From contig DAIQRF010000001.1 in NCBI GenBank assembly GCA_036786505.1, positions 1 through 43,071 on the forward strand: 43,071 bases of DNA. The letters run 5' to 3'. This DNA is from Casimicrobiaceae bacterium. GTDB lineage: Bacteria > Pseudomonadota > Gammaproteobacteria > Burkholderiales > Casimicrobiaceae. Positions within the stretch are counted from its first letter, which is position 1. The number at the start of each line of letters is the position of its first letter. Shown in pieces: positions 2,358 to 42,646 of this stretch. A model generated the notes under the pieces. That model was not told where the DNA came from. It saw only the letters and a program-made list of their open reading frames with translations, and made no database searches. A program made the translations under genes and the position numbers.

Positions 2358-2563
2358 CCGTCACTGTACTGATCCGCCGCAACGTCTACACCGACTGGCT
2401 GGAGGCTCACGTCGCGCAAGACGGCCGGAATGGCGAGAACCTACTGCGCGGCCGCAAGTGCCCGAGCGTGAGCGATGCCAAGCAGCGCGTGCGGGCGGAA
2501 CTGCGCATCGCTATCGCCGCCGGCGTCGACATAGTTTGGGACGTTGAGGAAGATGGCGACTAA
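2354..2563 (+). CDS. Hypothetical protein (69 aa)
   Basis: ORF track. Translationally coupled on both sides. Confidence 0.7.
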   Translation: MTVTVLIRRNVYTDWLEAHVAQDGRNGENLLRGRKCPSVSDAKQRVRAELRIAIAAGVDIVWDVEEDGD

Positions 2564-3170
2564 GAAGGTAGTGACCACCAAGCCCGGACTCAAGGCCGCG
2601 ATCTATGTGCGCGTGTCGACCGCCGACCAGAAGAATGAGATGCAGCTCACCGAGCTGGGCGAATACGCCGCCCGCATGGGGTGGCAGACCGTCATCTATT
2701 CCGACAAGACCAGCGGAACGAAAGCCAAGCGGCCCGGCCTCGATGCGCTGATGGCCGACGCACGCGCCCGCAAGTTCGACGTCGTGATCGTTTACAAGCT
2801 GGACCGTTTCGCCCGCTCCCTCCAGCATTTAATCACTAACATTCAGCTCCTGGACACCTTCGGCGTACGCTTCGTGTGCGTGACGCAGGGCATCGACACC
2901 GACCGCAACAACCCGGCGTCGCGCCTGATGCTGCATATCCTCGGCGCGGTGGCTGAGTTCGAGCGCGGCATCATCGTCGAACGGGTCAAGAGCGGTGTGG
3001 CTGAGGCTCAGCGCCAGGGTAAGCATTGCGGACGTTCGAAGCGTGTATTCCGGCGTGACCTAGCAGAGCGGCTCCGTAAACAAGGGTTGAGTCTGCGCGC
3101 GATAGGTCTGAAGCTGGGTGTGCCGTTTTCGACGATTGCAGACGCCCTGAAGCCTGTACGGAAAGGCTGA
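2553..3170 (+). CDS. Small serine recombinase, resolvase/invertase type (205 aa)
   Basis: AAIYVRVSTADQ catalytic-Ser motif, RPGLDALM...DVVIVYKLDRFARS, C-terminal HTH GLSLRAIGLKLGVPFSTIADAL. GAGGAAG RBS before ATG 2553. Confidence 0.9.
   Translation: MATKKVVTTKPGLKAAIYVRVSTADQKNEMQLTELGEYAARMGWQTVIYSDKTSGTKAKRPGLDALMADARARKFDVVIVYKLDRFARSLQHLITNIQLLDTFGVRFVCVTQGIDTDRNNPASRLMLHILGAVAEFERGIIVERVKSGVAEAQRQGKHCGRSKRVFRRDLAERLRKQGLSLRAIGLKLGVPFSTIADALKPVRKG
2554..2562 (+). promoter_or_regulatory. TGGCGACTA motif copy overlapping the recombinase start codon
   Basis: aTGGCGACTAag. Same 9-mer as at 11825, 13211, 14293, 24383 and 35938. Confidence 0.3.
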
Positions 3171-11733: not shown

Positions 11734-11824
11734 GGCGATCTCCCAACTGACCGGCCGTCGCCGATCAGGGGATCATAAGCGACATGTCCCCTCATCTGCC
11801 GTTTCGCGGCTCGTTCCGCCGTGC

Positions 11825-11835
11825 TGGCGACTATA
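11825..11835 (+). promoter_or_regulatory. TGGCGACTATA motif copy, 14 nt before the sigma-1 ATG
   Basis: 10/11 match to TGGCGACTACA. Confidence 0.4.
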
Positions 11836-11849
11836 ACTCCGTCACCACT

Positions 11850-12422
11850 ATGCCGACTGTCATCTGCATTGATACTGGCCTCCACCGAAAGCGCGTCCTC
11901 GAAGCCCGCAACGCGCTCGTCGAAGCCCACATGTACCTCGTGCCGGATATCGCCGGCCGGATCCGCGCCGGCCTACCACCCTCGTTCGATCTCGAAGATC
12001 TGATCAGCGAGGGAAATATCGGCCTCATCCAAGCGGCCACCCGCTACAGGCCGAGCGCGCACAACCGAACTCCCTTCTCCGCATACGCACGCAAGCGGAT
12101 ACGCGGCGCCATCATGGACAGCGTGCGCCGCCGCCGCTACACCGACAACACTCACCAAGCGTTGCCGGTAGAGATCACGAACTCGCGCAGCCTATCGTAC
12201 AGCAACACCGCGGAGGCCTCCGTCGACGAAGCCACTACGCTGCGCCGCCTGGAGCGCGCAATGACGTGGCTGCCGCGGGCGAAGCAACGCCTCCTCCAGA
12301 ACCTCTACTGCGATCGCATCAAGCCGCGCCCCACCGCCGCGTTCAAGCGGCGCAAAGACGTGATCGAAATCCACCCGGTCGCCCTCGCACAACTGAAAGT
12401 GGAATTCAGGCGAGCCGCGTGA
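11850..12422 (+). CDS. Sigma-70 family factor 1 (190 aa)
   Basis: Region-2-like DLEDLISEGNIGLIQAATRYRP...FSAYARKRIRGAIMDSVRR. Weaker region-4-like C-terminus. Met23 of ORF 11784..12422. Confidence 0.85.
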   Translation: MPTVICIDTGLHRKRVLEARNALVEAHMYLVPDIAGRIRAGLPPSFDLEDLISEGNIGLIQAATRYRPSAHNRTPFSAYARKRIRGAIMDSVRRRRYTDNTHQALPVEITNSRSLSYSNTAEASVDEATTLRRLERAMTWLPRAKQRLLQNLYCDRIKPRPTAAFKRRKDVIEIHPVALAQLKVEFRRAA

Positions 12423-13009
12423 CAGGCGACGAGCGTGACGCGCTAATCCTCAGCCTGGCGCCGCAAGTAAAAAAGCTTGCCTTTCGGAAATGGAATGCGA
12501 CCCCGAAGCGCGTGGGGCTCGATGAGCTGACCTCGGCGGCATGGCTCGGCGCCATCGCCGCGGTGGACCGCTTTGAGGTGGAGCGCGGCGTGAACCTCGC
12601 GACCTACGCGGACTGGAAAATTCGCAGCGCGATTGCCGATTACTTACGCAGCCTCGATCCGTTGACCCGTGGTCATCGGCGTCAGGTTAGCGCCGGAGAA
12701 TGCGAGCCGGTGATCGTGATGTCGCTACAGGACCGCGTGCGCGCCCTACACGCCGGCTCCGACGATTGCACGCTCGCGGAGACTCTCCCCGATCGCCGCG
12801 CCGCACTAGAACAGAGGCGCGCAGAGGAGCACGCGTCGCTTCAAGCGATCTACGCGCGTGCGCAATTGCAGCCGCGCAGTGCCAAAGTGCTGAAGCGCTG
12901 GGTTGAAGGGGAGACTCTTCTGGAAATCGGCGCGTCCATCGGCGTCGTTGAATCCCGCGCCTCGCATATTTGTAGCGCCGCGATCCGCAAGCTGCGCGCC
13001 GCCGCGTAA
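12419..13009 (+). CDS. Sigma-70 family factor 2 (196 aa)
   Basis: GTG start in a GTGA overlap. Region 2 ELTSAAWLGAIAAVDRFEVERGVNLATYADWKIRSAIADYLR. Region 4 LLEIGASIGVVESRASHICSAAIRKLR. Confidence 0.85.
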   Translation: MTGDERDALILSLAPQVKKLAFRKWNATPKRVGLDELTSAAWLGAIAAVDRFEVERGVNLATYADWKIRSAIADYLRSLDPLTRGHRRQVSAGECEPVIVMSLQDRVRALHAGSDDCTLAETLPDRRAALEQRRAEEHASLQAIYARAQLQPRSAKVLKRWVEGETLLEIGASIGVVESRASHICSAAIRKLRAAA

Positions 13010-14307: not shown

Positions 14308-14895
14308 ATGACAGCACAGCGCAAAGTTCCGGCGCCTGTGACAGACGAAGCGGGAGCGCGCGCACTCCTTCGCGCGCCCCGCGCGTCTTCCTGGTATGCG
14401 CTGCACGTGCTGGCCAACGCTGAATTCGTGGTCGAGAGCGCCCTGATCGGCTACGGAATCGAAGCCTTCCTGCCCACCTACGCCGAAAAGACCCAGTGGA
14501 GCGATCGCGTAACCACAACGATCCGGCCGCTCTTCCCCGGCTACCTGTTCGTGAATTGCGAAGGCCGCCCTTCGGAAACAATCGTCCGGCCGCGCCGCGA
14601 GATCTTGCGCATCGCCGGCATCATTAAAGTGCTACCCACCAACCTCAACCCCCAGCCCGTCGACCGCGAACAGATTGAGAACGTGCGCCGCGCCCTAGCC
14701 GCCCGGCTGCCGGTCACACGCTGCGAGTATCAGAGCGGCGATGAAGTATTGATCGACAAAGGTCCGCTCGCCGGCGTCAAGGGCATCGTTCAGCGCACCA
14801 AGCGCGGCACCGAAGTGATTATCCGCATCGAAATGCTGCAGCGGTCGGTCTGCGTGCAGGTCGACGCGGCCGACGTCCTGAAGGCCACCACATGA
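14308..14895 (+). CDS. NusG/RfaH/UpxY-like transcription antitermination factor (195 aa)
   Basis: NGN-like WYALHV...GIEAFLPTY...RPLFPGYLFV. KOW-like GDEVLIDKGPLAGVKGIV. Confidence 0.9.
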   Translation: MTAQRKVPAPVTDEAGARALLRAPRASSWYALHVLANAEFVVESALIGYGIEAFLPTYAEKTQWSDRVTTTIRPLFPGYLFVNCEGRPSETIVRPRREILRIAGIIKVLPTNLNPQPVDREQIENVRRALAARLPVTRCEYQSGDEVLIDKGPLAGVKGIVQRTKRGTEVIIRIEMLQRSVCVQVDAADVLKATT

Positions 14896-16627: not shown

Positions 16628-17965
16628 ATGGCCGCGAAGAAGAACCAGCCGCCGGCGCCGCCCGAGCGCCTCACCGTGGAGATGTGGCCCATCGCGCGGC
16701 CGATCCCCTACGCGAAGAATGCCCGCAAATTGAGCGAGCGCGCCATCGAAACGCTGGCCAGCTCGCTCAAGGAATTCGGATGGCGCCAGCCGATAGTGTG
16801 CGACGCCAAGGACGTCATTGTGGCCGGCCACACCCGCCTGATGGCCGCGCAGGCCCTCGGGATGACGGAAGTGCCCGTTCACGTCGCGGCAGGCCTCACG
16901 CCGCGCCAGGTGCGCGCCTACCGGATCATGGACAATCGGTCGGCCGACGAAACTACCTGGGACCTGGCTATGCTGCCCGAGGAGCTGGCCGAGCTGCAGG
17001 CCATGGGGATGGACCTGGCCCTGACCGGCTTCGATATCGGCGAGCTGGACAGCCTGATGCGGCCCCCGCCGCCTGAGGACGAGGACACAGCCCCCACGCC
17101 CCCCAAGCGCCCCACGACGCTGCTGGGTGACTTATGGAACCTGGGCCTCCACCGCGTGCTCTGTGCCGATGCGACGCTGCCCGACGCGACCAAGAAGCTT
17201 CTGGAGCCAGGCAGCGCGACGATTGCCTTCACGGCGCCCGCGATCGGGGAAGCCGAAGACGCAGCCGACGCCGGCAAGGCCGACCTGGTTCTCACCGATC
17301 CGCCCTATAACGTCGACTACACCGGCTACACCAAGAAACGTCTGAAGTTGAAAGGCGACGCCATGACGGCGCCGCAGTTTATCGAATTCCTGGGCGCGAC
17401 CTTTAAGGCGTTCGCCGGCGCGATGAAGCCGGCCGCCAGCCTCTACGTTTGCCACCCGTCGCTCTTTCAGCGGGAATTTCAGAACGCCCTCGAGTCCAGC
17501 GCGTTCAGCATCCGCACGCAGATCATCTGGGCAAAGAACACTTTCGGTTGGGGATTCGGCCGCTACAAATTTCAGCATGAGCCGATCTTCTACTGCCACC
17601 TGCGCGGGCAGAGTGATCGCTGGTTCGGCGACAAGACACAGTCGACGCTGTGGGCAGCCAACAAGCCGGCCGCTAACCGGCTGCACCCGACGATGAAACC
17701 GATCGCGCTGATCGAGCGCGCACTGGAAAACAGCTCGAAGGCCCGCGACATCGTCCTGGATCTTTTCGGCGGCAGCGGATCCACGCTGATCGCGTGCGAA
17801 AAACTTGGCCGCTGCGCGCGGCTGATGGAGCTGGATCCAGCCTATGCCGACGTCATCGTCGAACGCTGGCAGATTTACACCGGCAAGGTCGCGACGCTCG
17901 CGGGAGACGGCCGAACATTTGCGGAGGTTAAGGCCGCAAGAGCAGGGAAGAAGAATGCCGCGTAG
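16628..17965 (+). CDS. ParB-like nuclease domain fused to an N6/N4 DNA methyltransferase (445 aa)
   Basis: ParB N-terminal pattern IVAGHTRLMAA. Methyltransferase DPPYN motif (VLTDPPYNVDY) and FGGSGST. Confidence 0.92.
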   Translation: MAAKKNQPPAPPERLTVEMWPIARPIPYAKNARKLSERAIETLASSLKEFGWRQPIVCDAKDVIVAGHTRLMAAQALGMTEVPVHVAAGLTPRQVRAYRIMDNRSADETTWDLAMLPEELAELQAMGMDLALTGFDIGELDSLMRPPPPEDEDTAPTPPKRPTTLLGDLWNLGLHRVLCADATLPDATKKLLEPGSATIAFTAPAIGEAEDAADAGKADLVLTDPPYNVDYTGYTKKRLKLKGDAMTAPQFIEFLGATFKAFAGAMKPAASLYVCHPSLFQREFQNALESSAFSIRTQIIWAKNTFGWGFGRYKFQHEPIFYCHLRGQSDRWFGDKTQSTLWAANKPAANRLHPTMKPIALIERALENSSKARDIVLDLFGGSGSTLIACEKLGRCARLMELDPAYADVIVERWQIYTGKVATLAGDGRTFAEVKAARAGKKNAA

Positions 17966-29698: not shown

Positions 29699-31519
29699 AT
29701 GCCTTCCTTTGGATTCATCGAAGCTGGCTACACGGCCCGCGGCCTGGTCGCGGCGTGCCAGTCGTGGATGAACCTCTTCATCGAGAAGATCGACGTCCCC
29801 CACGGAGCCAACGACGACACCAAAGGCCAGCGGGTCGGTACCCATGGGTTCTGGGCGATGAATACGCCCGGCAAGCAGCTCCTTGTCGCGCTTCCCGACC
29901 AGCCGAACTCCTGCCTCGTGAACTCGAACGCGTTCTTTTATGCTCCCGGCGTCAATCTGTTTTTCGCGCTTTCGGGCACTACGCTCTATGCGATCCAGGC
30001 CACCTTCGCCGCCGGCGCCTGGACCGGAACCTACACCGCGATCGCCACCGCGATCCCGAACCAAACGATTGCCGGGACCGGCGGCCAGCTCTTTCCGGCG
30101 ACCATCATCGTCCTCAACCCGACGCTGCTATTTGTGGTTTCGGTGGGCAACGCCTACGTGGTCGGATACGGCCAGGCGCCGAGCGCATCCACCCTGGGCG
30201 ACCCAGGCGTGCTCTACGCCGTGGGCGATACCGGTTATGCCCCGATCAACGGCATCCCGGCGACGTATGTGATCACCGGCGTGGATGCAACGACCGGCGC
30301 CGTCACCAGCTACACCCTCACCGGCGGCACCGGATACTCGGTCGCGAATTACTCGACCACCACCGCGGGCGCGCAGCCCGGCACCGGCTCCGGCTTCACG
30401 ATTAACGTCACAAGCCTCGCCGCGGCCGCGTGGCTATCGCAGCAGCAGAATATCCCCTTTGGATCGACCAATTACATCAGCAGCGCGGCGTGGCAGGACG
30501 GCTATGTGATCGTCTCGGTGGCTCCGAACGATCCGGATCCGCTGCGGCGGCAGTTCTTTATTTCAGGCCTGTATGCGCCGACCCAGTGGGATCCGCTCGA
30601 TTTTGACACCAAGGAAGGACACCCCGACGCGGTCGTGGCGGTCTTTTCATCGAACCAGGTTCTCGGCATTTTCGGCTCGCAGACGAGCGAGATCTGGTAT
30701 GACGCCGGCAACGTGCTGTCGGCGTTCTCGCGGCTGCCAGGCGGCGGCGTGATCCAATTCGGCCTGGCGCAGCCGCGCGCCATTACCGAGATCGCCGGCA
30801 CCGCGGCGTGGCTCGACTCGAACGCGCGCGGCCAATATATCTGCCGCATGATGATCGGCTCGACGCCAACGCGCATCTCCAACTTCGCGCTGGAGAACCA
30901 CTGGTCAAAATTCGACACGGCCGGCATGTCGATGTCGAGCTATATCGAGGGCGGCCACGAATTTCTGTGCGTCCACTTTCCGATCCCCGACGAAACCTGG
31001 GTCTATGACCATACCGTCGGTCCGGAGCTGGGATGGCACCAGCGCAGCTATTGGGACGGCGCCGCCTTTCACGCGGACCTCGGCCGCTATCATGCGTTCT
31101 TCCCCGAAATCGGGCACGCCGTCGCCGACTACCGCAACGGCAACATCTACCTGCAGTCGCTCGAATTCCTGCAGGACAACTGCTCAAATATCCGGCGAAT
31201 CCGCGTGGCGCCGCACATCACGATCGAGAAGCGCCGCAACGTTTACGACCGCGTGAAGCTGCACGCGCTGACCGGCCGCGTGCCGGCAACGGGACCGGGC
31301 TCGGATCCGGTGTGCATGCTTTCCGTTTCACACGACGGCGGCCAGAACTACGGATCGCCGCTCACGGTCCGCATGGGCAAGATCGGCGAAACGACGGCCA
31401 TCATCGAGTGGTTCCACCTGGGCTATGGCCGCGACACCGTCTTTAAGTGGGAGTGCGACGAGCCCATCGACATCTGCCTGGTCGATATGTACTGCGATTT
31501 CCGGCCGGGTTATAACTGA
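29699..31519 (+). CDS. Tail hub, P22 gp10-like (606 aa)
   Basis: Blocks resembling P22 gp10 from memory (VLGIFGSQTSEIWYDAG; HEFLCVHFP...WVYD; HDGGQNYG...). Lies after the adaptors. Confidence 0.72.
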   Translation: MPSFGFIEAGYTARGLVAACQSWMNLFIEKIDVPHGANDDTKGQRVGTHGFWAMNTPGKQLLVALPDQPNSCLVNSNAFFYAPGVNLFFALSGTTLYAIQATFAAGAWTGTYTAIATAIPNQTIAGTGGQLFPATIIVLNPTLLFVVSVGNAYVVGYGQAPSASTLGDPGVLYAVGDTGYAPINGIPATYVITGVDATTGAVTSYTLTGGTGYSVANYSTTTAGAQPGTGSGFTINVTSLAAAAWLSQQQNIPFGSTNYISSAAWQDGYVIVSVAPNDPDPLRRQFFISGLYAPTQWDPLDFDTKEGHPDAVVAVFSSNQVLGIFGSQTSEIWYDAGNVLSAFSRLPGGGVIQFGLAQPRAITEIAGTAAWLDSNARGQYICRMMIGSTPTRISNFALENHWSKFDTAGMSMSSYIEGGHEFLCVHFPIPDETWVYDHTVGPELGWHQRSYWDGAAFHADLGRYHAFFPEIGHAVADYRNGNIYLQSLEFLQDNCSNIRRIRVAPHITIEKRRNVYDRVKLHALTGRVPATGPGSDPVCMLSVSHDGGQNYGSPLTVRMGKIGETTAIIEWFHLGYGRDTVFKWECDEPIDICLVDMYCDFRPGYN

Positions 31520-35013: not shown

Positions 35014-36131
35014 AAAAAGCCATTCTCACCTTATTTCTCGGATCCGTTCTCTACGCGCAGCAAACGCCGGCGCCGACCTTCGTCTATCAGGCCTTGACGA
35101 CGAACGCCAGCGGCCTGATTGTTCCGTGCGCTGGCTGCTCGCTCTACACCTACGCCGCCGGCGGCACGACCGGCAAGGCGACGTACACCACCGCCAACGG
35201 AGCGACGCCCAACAGCAACCCCATCGTGCTCGACTCGAATGGCGCCGCGCAGATGTGGACGACGCCCGGCGTAAGCTACCGCTTCGATCTCTATAGCGCC
35301 GCCCTCGTGCTCATCCGTTCCGTCGACAACGTCCCCGGCGGCACGCTGGCCGGCCAGTCGACCGTCACCGCAAATTATATTTACGCAGGTCCAGCGAGCG
35401 GCGCCGCGGCGGCGCCCGCTTTCCGCGCCGCGGTCCTGGCCGACCTGCCGAGCGCGATCGCGCTGAGCAGCGCGAATTTCGGCAGCCAGGGAACGACCGC
35501 CACCGTGCTTCATGGCAACGCCGGCAGCGCGCTCGCGTTCGGACCCGTCGTCGCGGCCGACTTCGGCGGCTCAGTGCCCGCGCGGACCGCGCTCGCGAAT
35601 CCCAGCGCCGCGGCAGGCACGCCCGCCCAGTCGACGACCCTCGACGTCCTCGCCTACCAGGTCGCGGAGATTCCGGCCTTCGTGCGCGTCACTGCCGACT
35701 TCACCACCAGCGGCGTCGGCACCGCGCTCGAAACGATCACCGGCCTGACCTTCACCATCCCGGCGTCGACCGCGCTGAATGTCCCCTTTCATTGCCACCT
35801 GATCTATCACCAGAACGTCGCCACCGTCGCCGTGGCCTTCGGCCTTGAGGACGTCACGATTTCCCCCACCAATATCGCGGCCATGGGCGAGATTCACACC
35901 GCCGCGGCCGTGATCGCCACAGGCAACCTCGTCGGGTTGGCGACTACAACTGCGACGGCCATTGTTAGCGCGACACCGTCCGCGATCACCACCGACTGGA
36001 ATGCGGAGGTGAGCGGAATGGTCGAAGCGCCTTCGAATGCCGCGTCGAGCGCCATCCAATTCATGGTCTCAACAGCGACGGCCGCCGACACCGTGACGGT
36101 GAGAAGGGGAAGCTTTTGCCAGTTGAATTAA
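35010..36131 (+). CDS. Tail-fibre-like protein with a signal-peptide-like N-terminus (373 aa)
   Basis: Met35 of ORF 34908..36131 in an ATGA overlap. MKKAILTLFLGSVLYAQQ. Then SLYTYAAGGTTGKATYTTANGATPNSNPIVLDSNGAAQMW, a fibre N-terminal-type pattern. Confidence 0.8.
   Translation: MKKAILTLFLGSVLYAQQTPAPTFVYQALTTNASGLIVPCAGCSLYTYAAGGTTGKATYTTANGATPNSNPIVLDSNGAAQMWTTPGVSYRFDLYSAALVLIRSVDNVPGGTLAGQSTVTANYIYAGPASGAAAAPAFRAAVLADLPSAIALSSANFGSQGTTATVLHGNAGSALAFGPVVAADFGGSVPARTALANPSAAAGTPAQSTTLDVLAYQVAEIPAFVRVTADFTTSGVGTALETITGLTFTIPASTALNVPFHCHLIYHQNVATVAVAFGLEDVTISPTNIAAMGEIHTAAAVIATGNLVGLATTTATAIVSATPSAITTDWNAEVSGMVEAPSNAASSAIQFMVSTATAADTVTVRRGSFCQLN
35938..35948 (+). promoter_or_regulatory. TGGCGACTACA motif copy inside the fibre-like gene, ~170 nt before the carrier-protein gene
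   Basis: Read directly. In frame as L-A-T-T. Confidence 0.3.
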
Positions 36132-36328
36132 AGAAAACAGTCGCCGAGGTGTTGGGTGCCAGCTATCCGCTCGCGCGCATGACGGAGAGCTTCGCCCAAA
36201 TCGGCATGGATTCGCTCGAATATTTGTGCTTTCTCGTCGACGTGGAGGCGGCACTGGATATCGTACTGCCGCGCTCGCCCGGCTTTATAACGCCGCAGGA
36301 CGTGGCGGATTGGGTAGCGAAGCAGTGA
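36116..36328 (+). CDS. Acyl/peptidyl carrier protein-like (70 aa, TTG start)
   Basis: FAQIGMDSLEYLCFLVDVEAALDI fits the carrier-protein DSL phosphopantetheine-site helix. GAGAAGGGGAAG RBS. Confidence 0.7.
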   Translation: MPVELKKTVAEVLGASYPLARMTESFAQIGMDSLEYLCFLVDVEAALDIVLPRSPGFITPQDVADWVAKQ

Positions 36329-36774
36329 CATTTCACGTCGAGCAGTGGCGCGACTTCTATCCGGAAGCCAAACCGCTGATGCAGGAGCACTGGGAAGAAA
36401 TCGCCATTGATCGCGAACAGATCCCTCTTTCGCTCAACGAGGAGCGCTACCAGCAGATTTCTGACGCCGGCATCCTGCATATTCTCGTGGCGCGCGAAGG
36501 CGCGGAGCTGGCCGGTTATTACATTGCCCTCGTCTTGCCGCACATTCACTACCAGGATGCGGGGCTGATGGCCTTCACCGATATTTACTTCCTGCGGCCG
36601 CAGTTCCGCAAGGGCCATGCCGGCGTTCAGATGTTCGTCGAAGCGGAGCGCACCTTACGCGAAGCCGGCGTTGTGAAAGCGTATTTGAGCTGCAAGGCGC
36701 ACCGCGACATCAGCCCGATCTTTGAAGCGTTGGGATGGAAGTTTTCAGACAAGAGCTATACGAAAGTTTTCTGA
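36325..36774 (+). CDS. GNAT-like acyltransferase (149 aa, GTG start)
   Basis: GTGA overlap with the carrier gene. LAGYYIALV...FLRPQFRKGHAGVQMFVEAERTLREAGV resembles the GNAT acyl-CoA-binding core. Confidence 0.7.
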   Translation: MTFHVEQWRDFYPEAKPLMQEHWEEIAIDREQIPLSLNEERYQQISDAGILHILVAREGAELAGYYIALVLPHIHYQDAGLMAFTDIYFLRPQFRKGHAGVQMFVEAERTLREAGVVKAYLSCKAHRDISPIFEALGWKFSDKSYTKVF

Positions 36775-36784
36775 GGAATCAACT

Positions 36785-37564
36785 ATGGGTTTAGGCACAG
36801 GCTCGATGGTCTCCGCTGGCATTGGCGCCTACGCCAGCATGTACGGAGCCGACCAACAGGCGAAGTCGGCGGCTAACGCTCTCCAATTCCAGGAATCGAC
36901 CCAGGCCACCAACCAGGCCAACTTCAAGCCATATCTCGACGCCGGATCCACCTCCATCAACAAGATGATGGAGGACCTCAACAATGGAACCTTCGGCCCC
37001 GGATCAAACCCCGCCTTTAAAGCGCCCACCGCCGATGAAGCGCGCGCGACGCCTGGCTATCAGTTCACCTTGAGCCAGGGCATGCGCGGCGTCGACGCCG
37101 GCGCGGCAGCTCGCGGAGGCGCGCTATCTGGCGGCGCCGCGAAGTCGGAAATGGGTTATGCGAGCGGCCTGGCCGACTCCACCTATAACGACGTGTACAA
37201 CCGTTCGCTTTCTGCCTACCAGGCCAACCTCGCCAAACAGGCGCAGGAATTCTCGCAGCTCTACCAGCCCGCCTCGTTGGGCGAAAACGCGGCAGCCCAG
37301 AGCGGCAACACCGCGCAGCAAGTCGCCGGCAACGTCGGAGGCTTGATGACCCAGGTCGGCAACGCGCAAGCAGCCGGCGCCATGGGGGTCGCGAACGCCG
37401 CCGCCGGCGGCGTGACCGGCGTGACGCAAGCGCGGTGGCTGAGCCAGTACGGCATGGGCGGCGCGGGCGGCGGCGCCATGCAATATGACGCCGGCGGCCA
37501 ACCCATCGCAGGAACCGGAAGCGAAGCGGACAACGTCGCCGCGCAATACGCAGCAGGATTCTAA
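36785..37564 (+). CDS. Gly/Ala/Gln-rich internal virion / ejection-type protein (259 aa)
   Basis: Met22 of ORF 36722..37564 with GAGGAA RBS. Composition and position match podovirus ejection proteins. Confidence 0.8.
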   Translation: MGLGTGSMVSAGIGAYASMYGADQQAKSAANALQFQESTQATNQANFKPYLDAGSTSINKMMEDLNNGTFGPGSNPAFKAPTADEARATPGYQFTLSQGMRGVDAGAAARGGALSGGAAKSEMGYASGLADSTYNDVYNRSLSAYQANLAKQAQEFSQLYQPASLGENAAAQSGNTAQQVAGNVGGLMTQVGNAQAAGAMGVANAAAGGVTGVTQARWLSQYGMGGAGGGAMQYDAGGQPIAGTGSEADNVAAQYAAGF

Positions 37565-37567
37565 ACC

Positions 37568-39310
37568 ATGCCCCTCGACCCATCCATCCCGTTATCGTTC
37601 AAGGCGCCCGAGTCGCCGCTCGCCTCGATCAGCCAGCTCATGCAGGTGCGCGGCCTCTCTTCGGAGATCGCGCTGCGCAACGCGCAGACCGAGCAGGCCC
37701 AGGCCAACACCGGCGACATCCAGGCGCAGGCGCTGGGCAGGCAGCGCGATCTCGCCGATCAACAGACCCTGCAGCAAGCCATGGGTGATGCGGATCACCC
37801 GGAGTATAAGGGCGCGGCGGTAAAGGGTGATTTCTCGTTCCTGGATGGCAAGGTTCAGCCGTCGTCGCAGTTGAAGTTTGCGACCGCGCAGCTCGGCAAG
37901 ATCAAAGAGCAGGCTGCTGTCGACACCACCACTCTCGCCAACACGCAGGCGTATCATAAGCAGCTCGGCGATACCATTTTCGGGTTAAGCCAGTTGCCAG
38001 TCGAAGACCGGGCAGGCGCCGCGGCCTCGGCCATCGGGGAATTGAGTAAACTACCCGGCGCCAAGCAACTGGCCGACCTCTCGACGATGGATTTTAGCGA
38101 CGCCGGCCTGAAGAAATATGCGGCGGACAATAACGCCGCGACGGAGTACTGGGGCGCGGTCAACACACAGAAGACCGCACAGCAGAAGATCGACACCGAG
38201 GCCGCGCTCGCACAGAAGGACCTCGGCCAAGGCGCAGCCGGCCAAGCCTCGGCCCTCGAAACCCGTTCGAAGATGGCCGATCAGCAGTATGGGCAGGCGG
38301 TCCAGTCGATTGCCGCGAACCCACCGAAGGACGCACAGGCGTACTCGGACCTCATCGATACACTGCCCCACGCCACGGCGGCGCGCATGCTCGCAACCAT
38401 GCCGATCGCAAATTACAATCCGGCAAAAGCGGGCTCCGTGCTCGCGCAATCGGCTTTAACCCCGGAGCAAGCGGCCACCACGTCGCAGGCCCAGGCCCGC
38501 GAGGCGGAAACCCTGCGCCACAACCGCGTCGACGAAGCGACCGCCGGCGGCCGTCTCGCCGTCGAACGGCAGCGGCTGAACCAAACCACCAACGGCGTGC
38601 AATTGAACCCGGCGCAGCAGGCCATCGCGCAAAAGTTGGCAGATGGCGACTTCAACCCGGCCCAGCTAACGCGGTTCCCCGACAAGGAAGCCCTCGTCGC
38701 GGGCGCAATCGCGCGCAATCCCAACTGGTCGCCCCAGACCTATGCGACCAAGGCTGCGTTTACGAATCCGCAATCGAAGCAGTCGCAGAATCTGGGAACG
38801 ATTTCGCGGATCGTCGAGCACCTGGGGCGGTTCGATCAAAATTCCGACTCCATCGGGATCGCGCCCGGATACGCGGCGGGCTTTAATCTCACCGGCGATG
38901 CGGCGAAACTTCACGAAGATGCGCACGCCATCTCATCGGAACTGGAAAAGCTGGTCTCGGGCGGCGTGGGCACCGAAGGCCAGGTCCAGGCCATCCAGAA
39001 AGGATTAGGTTCATCGATTCCATCGATCCGGAAGGACGCGAGCGCGGAACTCTCGCAACTGGTCGGCGGCCAATACGTCGGCATGAACCAAACCTATAAG
39101 GCCGGCACCGGCAAGGATCTGCCGCAGGACCAATTTGTGAGCCCGCACGGACGCGAGTGGCTGCAGAAGAACGGCATCAACGTGACGGGCAAGGCGACTG
39201 GCGGACTCCCGCCCGCGGCTCGCGCACAACTCCAGGAAGGCCACACCACCACATTTGGGAATGGCCAGCAGTGGACGCTCGAAAACGGCCAGGAAAAGCA
39301 GATCAAATAA
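37568..39310 (+). CDS. Internal virion / ejection-type protein (580 aa)
   Basis: ORF track. Gln/Ala-rich helical composition. Confidence 0.85.
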   Translation: MPLDPSIPLSFKAPESPLASISQLMQVRGLSSEIALRNAQTEQAQANTGDIQAQALGRQRDLADQQTLQQAMGDADHPEYKGAAVKGDFSFLDGKVQPSSQLKFATAQLGKIKEQAAVDTTTLANTQAYHKQLGDTIFGLSQLPVEDRAGAAASAIGELSKLPGAKQLADLSTMDFSDAGLKKYAADNNAATEYWGAVNTQKTAQQKIDTEAALAQKDLGQGAAGQASALETRSKMADQQYGQAVQSIAANPPKDAQAYSDLIDTLPHATAARMLATMPIANYNPAKAGSVLAQSALTPEQAATTSQAQAREAETLRHNRVDEATAGGRLAVERQRLNQTTNGVQLNPAQQAIAQKLADGDFNPAQLTRFPDKEALVAGAIARNPNWSPQTYATKAAFTNPQSKQSQNLGTISRIVEHLGRFDQNSDSIGIAPGYAAGFNLTGDAAKLHEDAHAISSELEKLVSGGVGTEGQVQAIQKGLGSSIPSIRKDASAELSQLVGGQYVGMNQTYKAGTGKDLPQDQFVSPHGREWLQKNGINVTGKATGGLPPAARAQLQEGHTTTFGNGQQWTLENGQEKQIK

Positions 39311-42300
39311 ATGGGCGATTGGGATGTCGTCTCCACACAACCGACCGCAGCGGCGCCGCCGCCGTCTTACGACACGGCGCTCTCGCCCGGCGACGAGGTA
39401 AAGTTTCGTGGCTGGAAGCAGAAGTATGCGCCAAACGACACCGGCACCGACTACGATCTCCGCGGCGCCTACAAAGCGGGACTGACGCCGAATCCGGAAC
39501 GCGGGCACTGGCCCGACACCTTCAAGAAGCCCAACCACCCGACGTTTAGCGATCAGAGCCAGTACAGCAAGGGCGACGTCAGCGGCGGCCATTGGGGCGA
39601 CGACAACTCGTTCACGCCATCGCCGACGAACCTGCAGCAACACAGCGCGGCGGAGCTCCAGCAGTACTTCAAGCAGAACGAACCCGCCAGTAAATTGAAT
39701 GCGGCGCCGCCGGCAGCCGGCGACGGCTGGAATGTTGTATCGAGCACGCCCGCAAAAACCAGCCTGCTCGACGACGCGGGCGAAACCCTGCACCAGTTCT
39801 GGTCGCAGGTAAACCCGGCGACGCAAGCCCAAGGCGCCGTCGCGCCCGTGCTGCATCCCCAAGACGCCTATCACGGGTACGTGCAGCAGCAGTCGGATCT
39901 TCTCCACAGCAGCGGCGAAGCGTTCAAAAAAGGCCAGTACTCCGAAGGCGTGCGCCACGGCTTGATGTATATGCTGAACGGCATCCCCGGCGTCGGTGCG
40001 CTGCTCGATCGCGCCGGCAATAAAGCGGGCGCCGGAGATTATAAGGGCGCCGTGGCCGACACGGCAGCCGTGGCCACGCTGCTCGGCGAAGGAAAGATCC
40101 TGCACGCAGGGACCGAGGCAGCGACCGAACCGGGAGCGATCAGCCAGCCGATCGCGGCCGCCGGCGACGCCATAAAACGAGGCGCGCAAGCGACGGCCAC
40201 AAAAGTCCAGCAGGGATCGGCCGCGCTGCCCACGCCAACTCTCGCCGAAGGAGCTGTGGCCCTGTCTGGGCATCCGCAGATCGCCAGCGGCATGTACGCC
40301 AAGCGGGCAATCCCCGCCGTGTGGGATGCCCTGAAGAAGCCGGCGCTGCCTCCCGCCGTCGACACCGGCCGCCCGATCGGAGCGCCGCAGCCGTTAACCC
40401 CGAGCGAAATGCGGACCCCGCAGGTCGAGGACATCCCCGACGTGGCGCGCCCTGAAGGACCAGAAGCACCTCCGACCGCTGGATCCGCGCGCACCTCGCG
40501 TCCAGTCGGCCCGCCGGCGGCGCTGCCGCGCGACCAGATGCAGACCCCGCTGCCTCCGGAGCCAATGCCTGACACGCCATGGCGCGTCGTCTCGCACGAA
40601 CCCACGCCCCCGGCCGCGATCCCGCGCGCCGAAAGCCTGAAGCCCGAAGTCGCGAAGACCCTGAAGGAAGGCGCTGTGCGCGAGAACCCCGACGGCAGCC
40701 GGCAAATACTGCAACGCGTGCCCCTCGACAAGATCGCGAGCGACCCCGGAAACGAAATCTATCCCGACGTCGTCGGCAGCTACCAGCGCAACGGCTACAG
40801 CGTCCACCCCGAGCTGCGCGCCAACGAGGCCGGCGGATTGACCGTTCAAGAGGGACACCACCGAATCGCGGCCGACGTGAAGAACGGGAAGACCGATGTG
40901 CTGGCCTGGACGCCACAAGCCGAATCGGTCCCAGCGCCGACCGTGCTGCAGGCGATCGACCAGGGAATCTCCAAGCGCGAGCCAGGTGAAGCCGCCGCGC
41001 CCGCCGTGACCGCGCCGCCGCCGGCCAGCCCGGCCGCGCCAGCGGCCGCGGCGCCGCCCTACGGCAAGCAGTACATCACGCCCGGCCAGGTCACCAAATA
41101 CGCAGCCGATAACGGCATCGAAGAAGCGGACGCTGCAGCCGCGCTCCAAAAGCAAGGAGTCAGCGTCGTCGACCGCTCCTCAACCAACCGCGTGCTTCAC
41201 GCCATCGGCGCCGAGCTGGGCTATAACCATGGCACCTTGAGCGAGATCGCGCACGCCACCTACGGCACCGGCCTGGGCAAGATGACCCACGAGCAGATGA
41301 TGGAGCTGGCCGAAAAGCTGGGCAACGAGCAAGCCACCAAAGAACCGCTCGCGACCAAGCGCGCCGGCACGCCGGCCGACATATCAGACAACCCAGCGAT
41401 CGCGCCCGAGGCTGAGGGCTCGCCGCTCGGCGGCGTGATCGCGCAGCTCCCCACCAGCGAACTCCACGCGGATCCGGTCCGCTTCCAATACAAAACCGGC
41501 ATGGGGCAGGGCGGCGCCGGCGAGGAGCTACGCAGCGTTACCAAATTTGACCCCGAGAAATCGGGCATCCTCAGCGTCTGGAAGGATCCAGCAGACGGCA
41601 AAACTTACGTGGTCAACGGACACCACCGCCTGGAACTCGCGCAGCGCACCGGCGCCGAAAGCGTGACCGTTCGCTATCTCGACGCAGCCAACGCGGCCGA
41701 GGCGAGAGCCAAGGGCGCGATGATCAACATCGCCGAAGGACGCGGCACGTCGATCGACGCGGCGAAGGTATTCAGGGATTCAGGCGCAACGGCCGACGAT
41801 CTCAAAAACCAAGGGCTCTCGTTGACCGGCAGCGTGGCAAAGGAAGGCCCGTCGCTGGCCAATCTGGACCCGAGCCTTTTCAACCAGGTCGTGAGCGGCG
41901 AGATGAAGCCGGCGCGCGGCGCCATGATCGGCCAGGTCGCCGAGCACGCCGACCAGCGCCAGCTCGTGAAGTTAATCCAGGAACGCGAAGCGAGCGGCAA
42001 GCCGATGACCGACGGCCAGGTGCAGGAGATGCTGCGTATGCAGGCGCCGCAGGTTACCGAAACCCAGCATTCGCTCTTCGGCGACGACGAGGTCTCGCGC
42101 AGCCTGATCGCCGAGAAGGCCGGCGTGAGCGACTACATCCAGAGCCGGCTCACGCAGAAACGGCGCACGTTTAACGCGGTCGGCAACGAGCGCGCAGCCA
42201 CCCGCCTGGCCGAAGCCGGCAACGTGATCGACGCCGAGAAGAACGCCGCGATCGCGGAAGCGACGAACCAGGAGCACGCGGTTTATCAGAAGCTGTCGAC

Positions 42301-42646
42301 GTCGACCGGCCCCGTCGCCGACGCACTCGACGAGGCAGCGAAGGCCCTGCACGCGGGCGAGAATCCAGCGATCGTAAAAGTGAGGACGTATGCCAAAATC
42401 GAACCCATTCTCAAGCAAGAAGCCGACAAACTCACCGGCCGCAGTGGCGCATCTGGTCAGCGATCTGAAGGATCTGCACAAGCTGGGAGCGGTCAAGCTG
42501 GCCGAGGGAAACCAAATCCATCTGCCGCAGCCGCCCAAAGCGCAGGGAAACGCGCTTCCGTCACCGCGACCGCCGATGACGATCTCGAAGCACCTCTGAG
42601 GGAATCGATCAAGAACGCGAGGAAGGCCAGCGATCTGATGCGCTAA
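39311..42646 (+). CDS. Large multidomain internal protein with two ParB/Srx-like domains (1111 aa)
   Basis: GHHR motifs at nt 40853 (EGHHRIA) and 41618 (NGHHRLELA) in ParB-nuclease-like contexts. Pro/Ala-rich linkers. Last gene of the structural operon. Confidence 0.88.
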   Translation: MGDWDVVSTQPTAAAPPPSYDTALSPGDEVKFRGWKQKYAPNDTGTDYDLRGAYKAGLTPNPERGHWPDTFKKPNHPTFSDQSQYSKGDVSGGHWGDDNSFTPSPTNLQQHSAAELQQYFKQNEPASKLNAAPPAAGDGWNVVSSTPAKTSLLDDAGETLHQFWSQVNPATQAQGAVAPVLHPQDAYHGYVQQQSDLLHSSGEAFKKGQYSEGVRHGLMYMLNGIPGVGALLDRAGNKAGAGDYKGAVADTAAVATLLGEGKILHAGTEAATEPGAISQPIAAAGDAIKRGAQATATKVQQGSAALPTPTLAEGAVALSGHPQIASGMYAKRAIPAVWDALKKPALPPAVDTGRPIGAPQPLTPSEMRTPQVEDIPDVARPEGPEAPPTAGSARTSRPVGPPAALPRDQMQTPLPPEPMPDTPWRVVSHEPTPPAAIPRAESLKPEVAKTLKEGAVRENPDGSRQILQRVPLDKIASDPGNEIYPDVVGSYQRNGYSVHPELRANEAGGLTVQEGHHRIAADVKNGKTDVLAWTPQAESVPAPTVLQAIDQGISKREPGEAAAPAVTAPPPASPAAPAAAAPPYGKQYITPGQVTKYAADNGIEEADAAAALQKQGVSVVDRSSTNRVLHAIGAELGYNHGTLSEIAHATYGTGLGKMTHEQMMELAEKLGNEQATKEPLATKRAGTPADISDNPAIAPEAEGSPLGGVIAQLPTSELHADPVRFQYKTGMGQGGAGEELRSVTKFDPEKSGILSVWKDPADGKTYVVNGHHRLELAQRTGAESVTVRYLDAANAAEARAKGAMINIAEGRGTSIDAAKVFRDSGATADDLKNQGLSLTGSVAKEGPSLANLDPSLFNQVVSGEMKPARGAMIGQVAEHADQRQLVKLIQEREASGKPMTDGQVQEMLRMQAPQVTETQHSLFGDDEVSRSLIAEKAGVSDYIQSRLTQKRRTFNAVGNERAATRLAEAGNVIDAEKNAAIAEATNQEHAVYQKLSTSTGPVADALDEAAKALHAGENPAIVKVRTYAKIEPILKQEADKLTGRSGASGQRSEGSAQAGSGQAGRGKPNPSAAAAQSAGKRASVTATADDDLEAPLRESIKNARKASDLMR

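Follow-up and report, generated by a model that had tools for sequence, protein, structure and literature searches.

Two adjacent genes in a 43,071-nt stretch of DNA assigned to a Casimicrobiaceae bacterium (assembly GCA_036786505.1, contig DAIQRF010000001.1; the whole stretch is called the window below) encode a small acyl carrier protein (ACP) and an acyltransferase with the fold of the Gcn5-related N-acetyltransferases (GNATs). Our analysis suggests, with a probability of roughly 0.4, that the two genes are one functional unit, a carrier-protein-dependent acyltransferase heading the ejection operon of a P22-like podovirus. As read from the sequence, the two genes are translationally coupled, and the carrier is AcpP-like but divergent, and not an AcpP orthologue. 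The module is a variant of carrier-dependent acyl transfer in a phage gene slot that is known but unexplained, and it is plausible that the pair acylates an ejection protein. The features of the pair are as follows.

36103-36112, + strand: Shine-Dalgarno-like run GAAGGGGAAG, 6 nt 5' of the TTG start of the ACP gene (from the sequence)
36116-36328, + strand: AcpP-like ACP, 70 amino acids, TTG start (from Pfam, the AlphaFold2 model, homologues and the ratio of nonsynonymous to synonymous substitution rates, dN/dS)
36209-36214, + strand: codons of Asp32-Ser33 (GAT TCG), predicted 4'-phosphopantetheine attachment site (from invariance, alignment and model)
36325-36328, + strand: GTGA overlap, in which the ACP stop TGA (36326-36328) shares bases with the GNAT start GTG (36325-36327) (from the sequence)
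36325-36774, + strand: GNAT-fold acyltransferase, 149 amino acids, GTG start, in the slot of T7 gene 13/P22 gene 14 (from the AlphaFold2 fold and PHROG 1249)
36607-36624, + strand: motif-A-like loop R95-K-G97-H-A-G100, predicted to bind the pantetheine/pyrophosphate of the donor (from conservation and alignment)

The original prediction, made without database searches, had seen a carrier signature in the 70-residue open reading frame (ORF), which includes FAQIGMDSLEYLCFLVDVE, and the family and structure comparisons agree with it. The protein passes the threshold of the Pfam PP-binding model PF00550 (21.8 bits with a cut-off of 20.8, E=2.3e-4). The PF00550 matches in the ACPs of relatives are unmarked, and a related ACP that is fused to a GNAT (P0173, described below) reaches 43.7 bits. 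The best PDB sequence matches of the window ACP are all ACPs, with the serine of the DSL motif aligned. The AlphaFold2 model is a helical bundle with a predicted local distance difference test score (pLDDT) of 77.8, its helix II begins at Ser33, and it resembles solved ACPs at template-modelling (TM) scores of 0.82-0.87. Among the 50 PDB matches listed for the model, all are carrier proteins or complexes containing one, mostly at TM 0.7-0.87; the Foldseek E-values are modest (at least 1.4e-3) because the protein is short. Asp32 and Ser33 are the sole invariant columns in our alignments of 12 and 47 phage ACPs, which are 13-84% identical to the window ACP, and the serine that had been proposed as the phosphopantetheine site is thus conserved in the homologues.

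Both genes are under purifying selection with dN/dS of about 0.2. Among relatives at 81-99% identity the ACP frame gives 0.18-0.20 vs 1.1-3.4 in the other two frames, and the ACP differences between these close relatives are mainly at synonymous sites. A chance or spurious ORF is ruled out by this gap between the in-frame and the out-of-frame values together with the deep conservation of the protein. The first 16 nt of the ACP gene are shared with the 3' end of the upstream gene, and the Shine-Dalgarno-like run in front of it is kept in L004, L006 and L008. As for the kind of carrier, the AcpP-type NCBIfam models match 12 of the 12 phage ACPs tested whereas DltC gives weak matches in just two of them, and we rejected a carrier of the DltC or peptidyl-carrier type. 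The window ACP itself scores 18.8 bits on NF002150, under the AcpP equivalog cut-off (66-70 bits; TIGR00517/NF002150). A tblastn search with it found no match in 50,697 deposited phage genomes, where the more AcpP-like members of the ACP family match only unrelated contexts.

The second protein had been described as having a GNAT-like core, and its predicted structure bears this out. The longest-ORF list places the start of this gene at 36226, and the homologues all begin at the position of MTFHVE. The AlphaFold2 model has a pLDDT of 90.8 and resembles solved GNATs with TM scores of 0.73-0.76. It has 268 PDB matches at E<=1e-3, and among the 50 listed almost all are GNAT acetyltransferases, the closest solved folds being small acetyl-CoA GNATs such as AAC(3)-I, RimI and GNA1. 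Viral models match up to TM 0.89, with Vibrio phage VpV262 at TM 0.84 and Roseobacter phage CRP-4 at TM 0.79. At the level of sequence the window GNAT matches PHROG 1249 'acetyltransferase' with E=2e-9 and reaches 23.5 bits on Pfam Acetyltransf_10, for which the threshold is 23.6 (E=5.8e-5); Acetyltransf_1 is also sub-threshold, the PF00583 threshold is passed by many of the homologues, and the Pfam scan gave no match to Acetyltransf_8. The family has 251 clusters (50% identity) at E<=1e-30 and 3162 at E<=1e-10.

Eight polar residues, H22, Y65, H75, Y76, D86, E108, K124 and K147, are invariant or nearly so across the GNAT family. The motif-A-like loop aligns with R-R-E-G-V-A of PDB 3jvn, and its residues R95, G97 and G100 are conserved in ACP-linked and ACP-less clades. 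The loop is a variant of the GNAT motif A (Q/R-x-x-G-x-G/A), in which the first Arg and the last Gly are kept and position 4 is not Gly. The invariant polar residues and this loop suggest catalysis rather than a purely structural role.

We examined whether the GNAT belongs to several known groups of acyltransferases. The original prediction had drawn an analogy to the toxin-activating acyltransferases (TAATs) of the HlyC/ApxC family, and a kinship with them does not hold, as there is no PF02794 match at E<=1 and no TAAT structure in the 50 best PDB folds. The window GNAT is not an N-myristoyltransferase (NMT) either, because it is a single 149-residue domain without an NMT Pfam match and NMTs consist of two GNAT-like lobes. 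Membership among LuxI- or FeeM-type enzymes has no Pfam support.

Some members of the GNAT family occur in other settings. Distant homologues lie between the large terminase and the portal in L096 (MW202722.1), L097 (MW202640.1) and L098 (Limnohabitans phage DC33, PQ492659.1). The taxonomy line of DC33 says Inoviridae, yet its genome is 39 kb and its genes are annotated as hypothetical only; the gene sizes of its GNAT stretch are like those of the GNAT-to-portal stretch of two podovirus records, and its lineage is probably mislabelled. Five other family members (P0273, P0209, P0251, P0252 and P0267; L102:3275-4381, L103:1798-2904) carry an Asp/Arg beta-hydroxylase domain (PF05118) at their N-terminus, and the gp7-like gene that comes next starts MGISGTMAAVAG. 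Among curated proteins the hydroxylase domain is nearest to LpxO and OlsC, which hydroxylate lipid acyl chains, and among solved structures it is nearest to the protein hydroxylase ASPH, though these matches are all weak. These fusions are a hint that the GNAT family belongs to modification chemistry.

The ACP and the GNAT are kept together across the relatives. We examined close relatives in which the pair is 81-99% identical (L004-L008), more distant ACP-carrying relatives (L009, L010, L011 and L013), six IMG/VR loci with the pair (L014-L016 and L018-L020) and three loci (L099, L100 and the P0071 contig) chosen among the matches of an ACP profile. The ACP lies directly 5' of the GNAT in 19 of 19 independent ACP-carrying relatives, mostly with the 4-nt overlap that had been noted in the window as a GTGA coupling; this overlap recurs in L004, L006-L009, L011, L013 and L099, and overlaps of 17-19 nt are found in L010 and the P0071 contig. 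Distant relatives keep the pair while their GNATs are 38-72% and their ACPs 15-25% identical. In L099, L100 and the P0071 contig the layout is P22 coat, gp10-like gene, ACP, GNAT and three large proteins in this order. Overall, the genes 5' of the ACP vary among the loci, and the gp7-like gene and two large genes 3' of the pair are constant.

In a neighbour-joining tree built from 79 distinct GNATs, the ACP-linked ones (n=14) make up a single clade that lies within the ACP-less diversity. This clade has changes of its own, namely a one-residue insertion (G80) and the residues H52, M82, T85, K118, Y120 and S122. At position 98 of the loop, 57 of 65 ACP-less GNATs have Arg, and the ACP-linked clade has His, Ser or Gly. 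In two proteins, P0173 (L101:85-786) and P0222, the PP-binding domain and the GNAT follow each other in a single polypeptide as natural fusions. P0173 reads as one ORF on its own contig and is followed by a gp7-like gene starting MSITGPIIGG, and gene-call artefacts are possible for such fusions. Among the deposited phage genomes, none gave a match to the ACP half and the GNAT half of the fusion protein together.

The original prediction had placed the pair between tail fibres and ejection proteins. The ejection side of this claim stands; the tail-fibre label of the genes 5' of the ACP is supported by weak matches only. Three large genes follow the GNAT.

36785-37564, + strand: ejection protein of the P22 gp7/T7 gp14 type (internal virion protein B, IVP-B), 259 amino acids, candidate acceptor (from PHROG 598)
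37568-39310, + strand: second ejection-protein position (slot of P22 gp20/T7 gp15), 580 amino acids (from position and size only)
39311-42646, + strand: third ejection-protein slot, 1111 amino acids, with ParB-like regions (from PHROG matches)

The first of these genes starts 10 nt after the GNAT, and its product matches PHROG 598 'DNA ejection' with E=2.7e-21, the same PHROG into which P22 gp7 falls (E=2e-95). The gp7/gp14 class forms the outer-membrane pore of the ejection channel in T7 and P22 (PMC8954989, PMC11784390). The window protein has a Gly/Ala-rich hydrophobic N-terminus beginning MGLGTGS, and the MG[L/I]GTG start and the Gly/Ala-rich hydrophobic segment are kept in the gp7-like proteins of nine ACP-linked lineages. 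In one locus (L019:4440-4520) the gp7-like gene has no canonical start before the conserved GIGTTAAVVGG, which implies an ATA/ATC start or a sequencing error. The 580-residue protein had no family match in the Pfam, PHROG and NCBIfam scans. The 1111-residue protein matches PHROG 21 in its C-terminal part (2.7e-76; labelled portal protein), PHROG 10691 and the ParB-like PHROG 1033, and it resembles a polyvalent injected protein. The relatives have the same three-gene layout after the GNAT.

A GNAT in front of the ejection proteins is not new, since the acetyltransferase gene of internal virion protein A (IVP-A) has already been described. For phiRIO-1-like podoviruses, Hardies et al. 2016 (PMC4819975) report a small non-structural gene of the acetyltransferase family that separates the tail genes from IVP-B; they state that T7 IVP-A (gp13) matches acetyltransferases by HHpred, and find IVP-A/IVP-B homologues in syntenic position in P22 and epsilon15. 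In P22 it is gene 14, with the annotation 'virion stability factor', that lies directly 5' of gene 7. The window GNAT, a protein of about 150 residues encoded directly 5' of the IVP-B gene and heading the ejection operon, is like IVP-A in its slot, and the N-acetyltransferase of VpV262, another occupant of the IVP-A slot, is among its best structural matches. GNAT homologues occur in the same layout in PfAn1, Zobellviridae vibriophages and MW202796. With T7 gp13 (PF11090) and with P22 gp14 (PF11039) the profile of the GNAT gave an hhalign probability below 1%, which is a weak test as the known proteins entered it as single sequences; the PHROGs also differ, 1249 for the window GNAT and 308 and 651 for T7 gp13 and P22 gp14.

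The difference from the described IVP-A lies in the carrier. No carrier protein is mentioned in section 9 of Hardies et al. (PMC4819975), the published phages that we examined have no ACP partner, and our literature search found no description of an ACP coupled to this GNAT nor of acylated ejection proteins. The ACP partner of the GNAT in this slot thus appears to be undescribed. The system had originally been put forward as one without a described counterpart, and this appears to hold for the ACP partner and not for the acetyltransferase gene, which is already in PMC4819975.

How might such a pair work? GNATs transfer acyl groups from pantetheine thioesters to amines, and a dedicated carrier that is coupled, sometimes fused, and invariant only at its pantetheine site is most simply the donor. 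The phage ACP and GNAT would be made late and together through coupled translation. A host phosphopantetheinyl transferase would convert Ser33 to the holo form, and host enzymes would load the acyl group. We found no phosphopantetheinyl transferase, AMP-ligase (acyl-ACP synthetase) or ketosynthase among the 51 window ORFs scanned (41 + 10), a scan that short or very divergent ORFs could escape; with no recognisable phosphopantetheinyl transferase, adenylating enzyme or ketosynthase in the phage, the host would have to activate and charge the carrier. Being AcpP-like, the ACP is a possible substrate of AcpS and the type II fatty-acid machinery. The GNAT would then move the acyl group from the acyl-S-ACP thioester to an amine of a protein that enters the virion core. 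The likeliest acceptor would be the adjacent gp7/gp14-type ejection protein, a candidate because the GNAT is anchored to it by position, and it might be acylated at an exposed N-terminal glycine or at a lysine. A glycine exposed by removal of the methionine is the kind of N-terminus used by N-terminal acyltransferases; from the NMTs the scheme takes no more than this notion of glycine acylation. In this scheme we infer the role of the ACP as acyl donor, the identity of the loader, the acyl chain length and the acceptor.

Two known systems come close to this scheme. In the mycobactin pathway, MbtK is a GNAT of canonical size that N-acylates an amine from its own stand-alone ACP, MbtL. The likeness is that of a GNAT with a dedicated ACP; in contrast to the window, where no loader was found among the ORFs scanned, MbtL is loaded by a dedicated ligase encoded nearby, FadD33, and the acceptor is a small-molecule lysine. 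The second system is that of the TAATs. HlyC, ApxC, CyaC and CdiC are related to GNATs and draw on acyl-ACP to lipidate a membrane-targeting protein whose gene lies next to theirs. To our knowledge they use the housekeeping ACP of the host and no dedicated carrier. The window GNAT might be compared with them in mechanism, as it too adjoins the gene of a protein of a membrane-inserting type, but that protein is only a candidate acceptor. With the PF02794 match missing and the folds being those of ordinary acetyl-CoA GNATs, the TAATs are just a mechanistic analogy. For CdiC the analogy draws on PMC8510554.

We speculate further that the IVP-A GNATs in general are protein N-acyltransferases that prime the gp7/gp14-type protein, so that ejection proteins are lipidated before packaging, and that one large uncultured clade supplies its own ACP. 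This wider proposal is doubtful, clearly more so than the joint function of the two genes.

Several observations weigh against acyl transfer from the ACP to an ejection protein. No ACP lies within 4 kb of about 65 of the 79 sampled GNATs, and the complete genome of Pseudomonas phage PfAn1 lacks one. Most family members therefore work without a phage ACP, and the ACP is not intrinsic to the job of the family. The homologues between terminase and portal show that the family is not bound to one slot. The acetyl-CoA enzymes to which the window GNAT is closest in fold are not known acyl-ACP users. As for the acceptor, the gp7-like proteins of L015, L016 and L020, which belong to the ACP clade, start with MST, and those of ACP-less clades have N-termini of the type MG.., similar though not identical to those of the ACP-linked lineages. 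The conservation of MG[L/I]GTG is in addition confounded with phylogeny and with a generally conserved glycine-zipper segment. T7 gp13 is catalogued, by its Pfam name, only as a 'probable scaffold protein'. The words 'acyl' and 'acetyl' have 0 occurrences in a review of ejection proteins and a T7 cryo-EM paper (PMC8954989, PMC11784390), so that neither mentions acylation of T7 gp14 or P22 gp7.

Other explanations share parts of this evidence. The GNAT could be an acyl-ACP-dependent enzyme whose acceptor is not a virion protein, being instead a host envelope component (lipid A or lipopolysaccharide, peptidoglycan, an aminolipid precursor) or a small molecule, for instance an N-acyl amino acid, made late in infection. 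OlsB, FeeM and LuxI are GNAT-related N-acyltransferases that transfer from acyl-ACP onto small acceptors, the solved GNAT folds nearest to ours act on small amines (aminoglycosides, glucosamine-6-phosphate, polyamines), and the hydroxylase domains fused to some family members are weakly LpxO/OlsC-like (E 1e-5 to 2e-4). However, the GNAT gene stays anchored to the gp7-like gene over deep divergence while the upstream genes vary, its slot is that of T7 gene 13/P22 gene 14, morphogenetic factors in the literature, and it has no Pfam match at E<=1 to Acetyltransf_5, autoinducer synthases or other acyl-ACP small-molecule families. We consider an acceptor outside the virion unlikely. A host-directed role of another kind is far less probable still, namely that the ACP is an independent auxiliary metabolic gene perturbing fatty-acid synthesis in the host and that the adjacent GNAT is incidental. 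The auxiliary metabolic genes reported from phages include acpP (PMC8224337), a phage ACP has been predicted to bind host FabZ (bioRxiv 10.64898/2026.03.01.708874), and Rhizobium phage RHph_X2_24 has its ACP in a non-structural module, beside a MazG gene. These genes are like the window gene in encoding a small AcpP-like ACP, but they lie in early or metabolic modules or beside fabF/fabG and are not coupled to a GNAT of a virion operon. The ACP considered here adjoins the GNAT in every ACP-carrying relative examined, mostly with overlap and even where ACP identity is down to 15-25%; the ACP-linked GNATs are monophyletic, natural ACP-GNAT fusions exist, and the pair is located in the late virion operon.

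It could also be that the ACP is not the donor. The GNAT would then load or process the ACP, as in CurA, or the acyl-ACP would be a subunit, structural or regulatory, of an assembly chaperone that is not catalytic and helps the ejection proteins to enter the procapsid. The CurA-type didomain is part of a megasynthase in which the GNAT both decarboxylates the donor and loads the ACP, the order being GNAT-ACP and then ketosynthase; this precedent for a GNAT-ACP loading module is reportedly due to Gu and colleagues in 2007. The mitochondrial ACP is a subunit of the structural kind for LYR proteins, and the ACP model is about equally close to ACP subunits of respiratory complex I and to ACPs of type II fatty-acid synthesis. 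The scaffold name of the T7 gp13 family and the fact that most GNAT family members need no ACP speak for such a role too. Against it are the polar residues and the donor-binding loop, which are invariant over hundreds of GNAT clusters and point to catalysis. The window pair shares with CurA the combination of a GNAT and an ACP, but the two are free-standing here or fused in the opposite order, ACP then GNAT, and neither a ketosynthase nor any other consumer of a loaded ACP is found among the window ORFs scanned. A carrier that does not serve as donor seems to us improbable, and a functional unit in which the ACP donates to the GNAT remains our tentative preference.

The window, with a G+C content of 63.6%, looks like a whole P22-like podovirus genome. 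By family matches it encodes a P22-type portal, a P22-type coat, a methylase and an SLT lysozyme, as well as the following protein.

29699-31519: gp10-like 'Phage_stabilise'/Hc3 protein (from a family match)

A serine recombinase (resolvase plus helix-turn-helix) and, separately, a ParB_N-N6/N4 DNA methylase fusion protein are encoded at 2544-3170 and 16628-17965; the recombinase is a likely integrase, so the phage may be temperate. Two sigma-70-like proteins (both with region 2, one with region 4 too) and a NusG-like protein, at 11784-12422, 12266-13009 and 14308-14895, suggest that the phage does its own reprogramming of host transcription. Searching the species-representative genomes with the GNAT profile for a host of the phage gave no match.

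Short-tailed phages build a channel through the cell envelope from proteins stored in the capsid, and little is understood of how these proteins are made ready to insert into membranes. Of T7 gp13 it is known only that morphogenesis requires it and that the virion does not contain it. The acetyltransferase-like gene that heads the ejection operon has been noted before and never explained, and a coupled, sometimes fused carrier that is invariant only at its phosphopantetheine site is the first concrete hint of acyl-transfer chemistry in this slot. If our reading is true, protein lipidation would join the maturation steps of the virion, and the pair would be the first virus-encoded carrier-protein-dependent system for protein lipidation. 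Its ACPs would form a new class of phage ACP, widespread and distinct from metabolic 'auxiliary' genes. What T7 gene 13 and P22 gene 14 do could then be approached through a mechanism; the IVP-A GNATs have long been catalogued as scaffold or stability factors.

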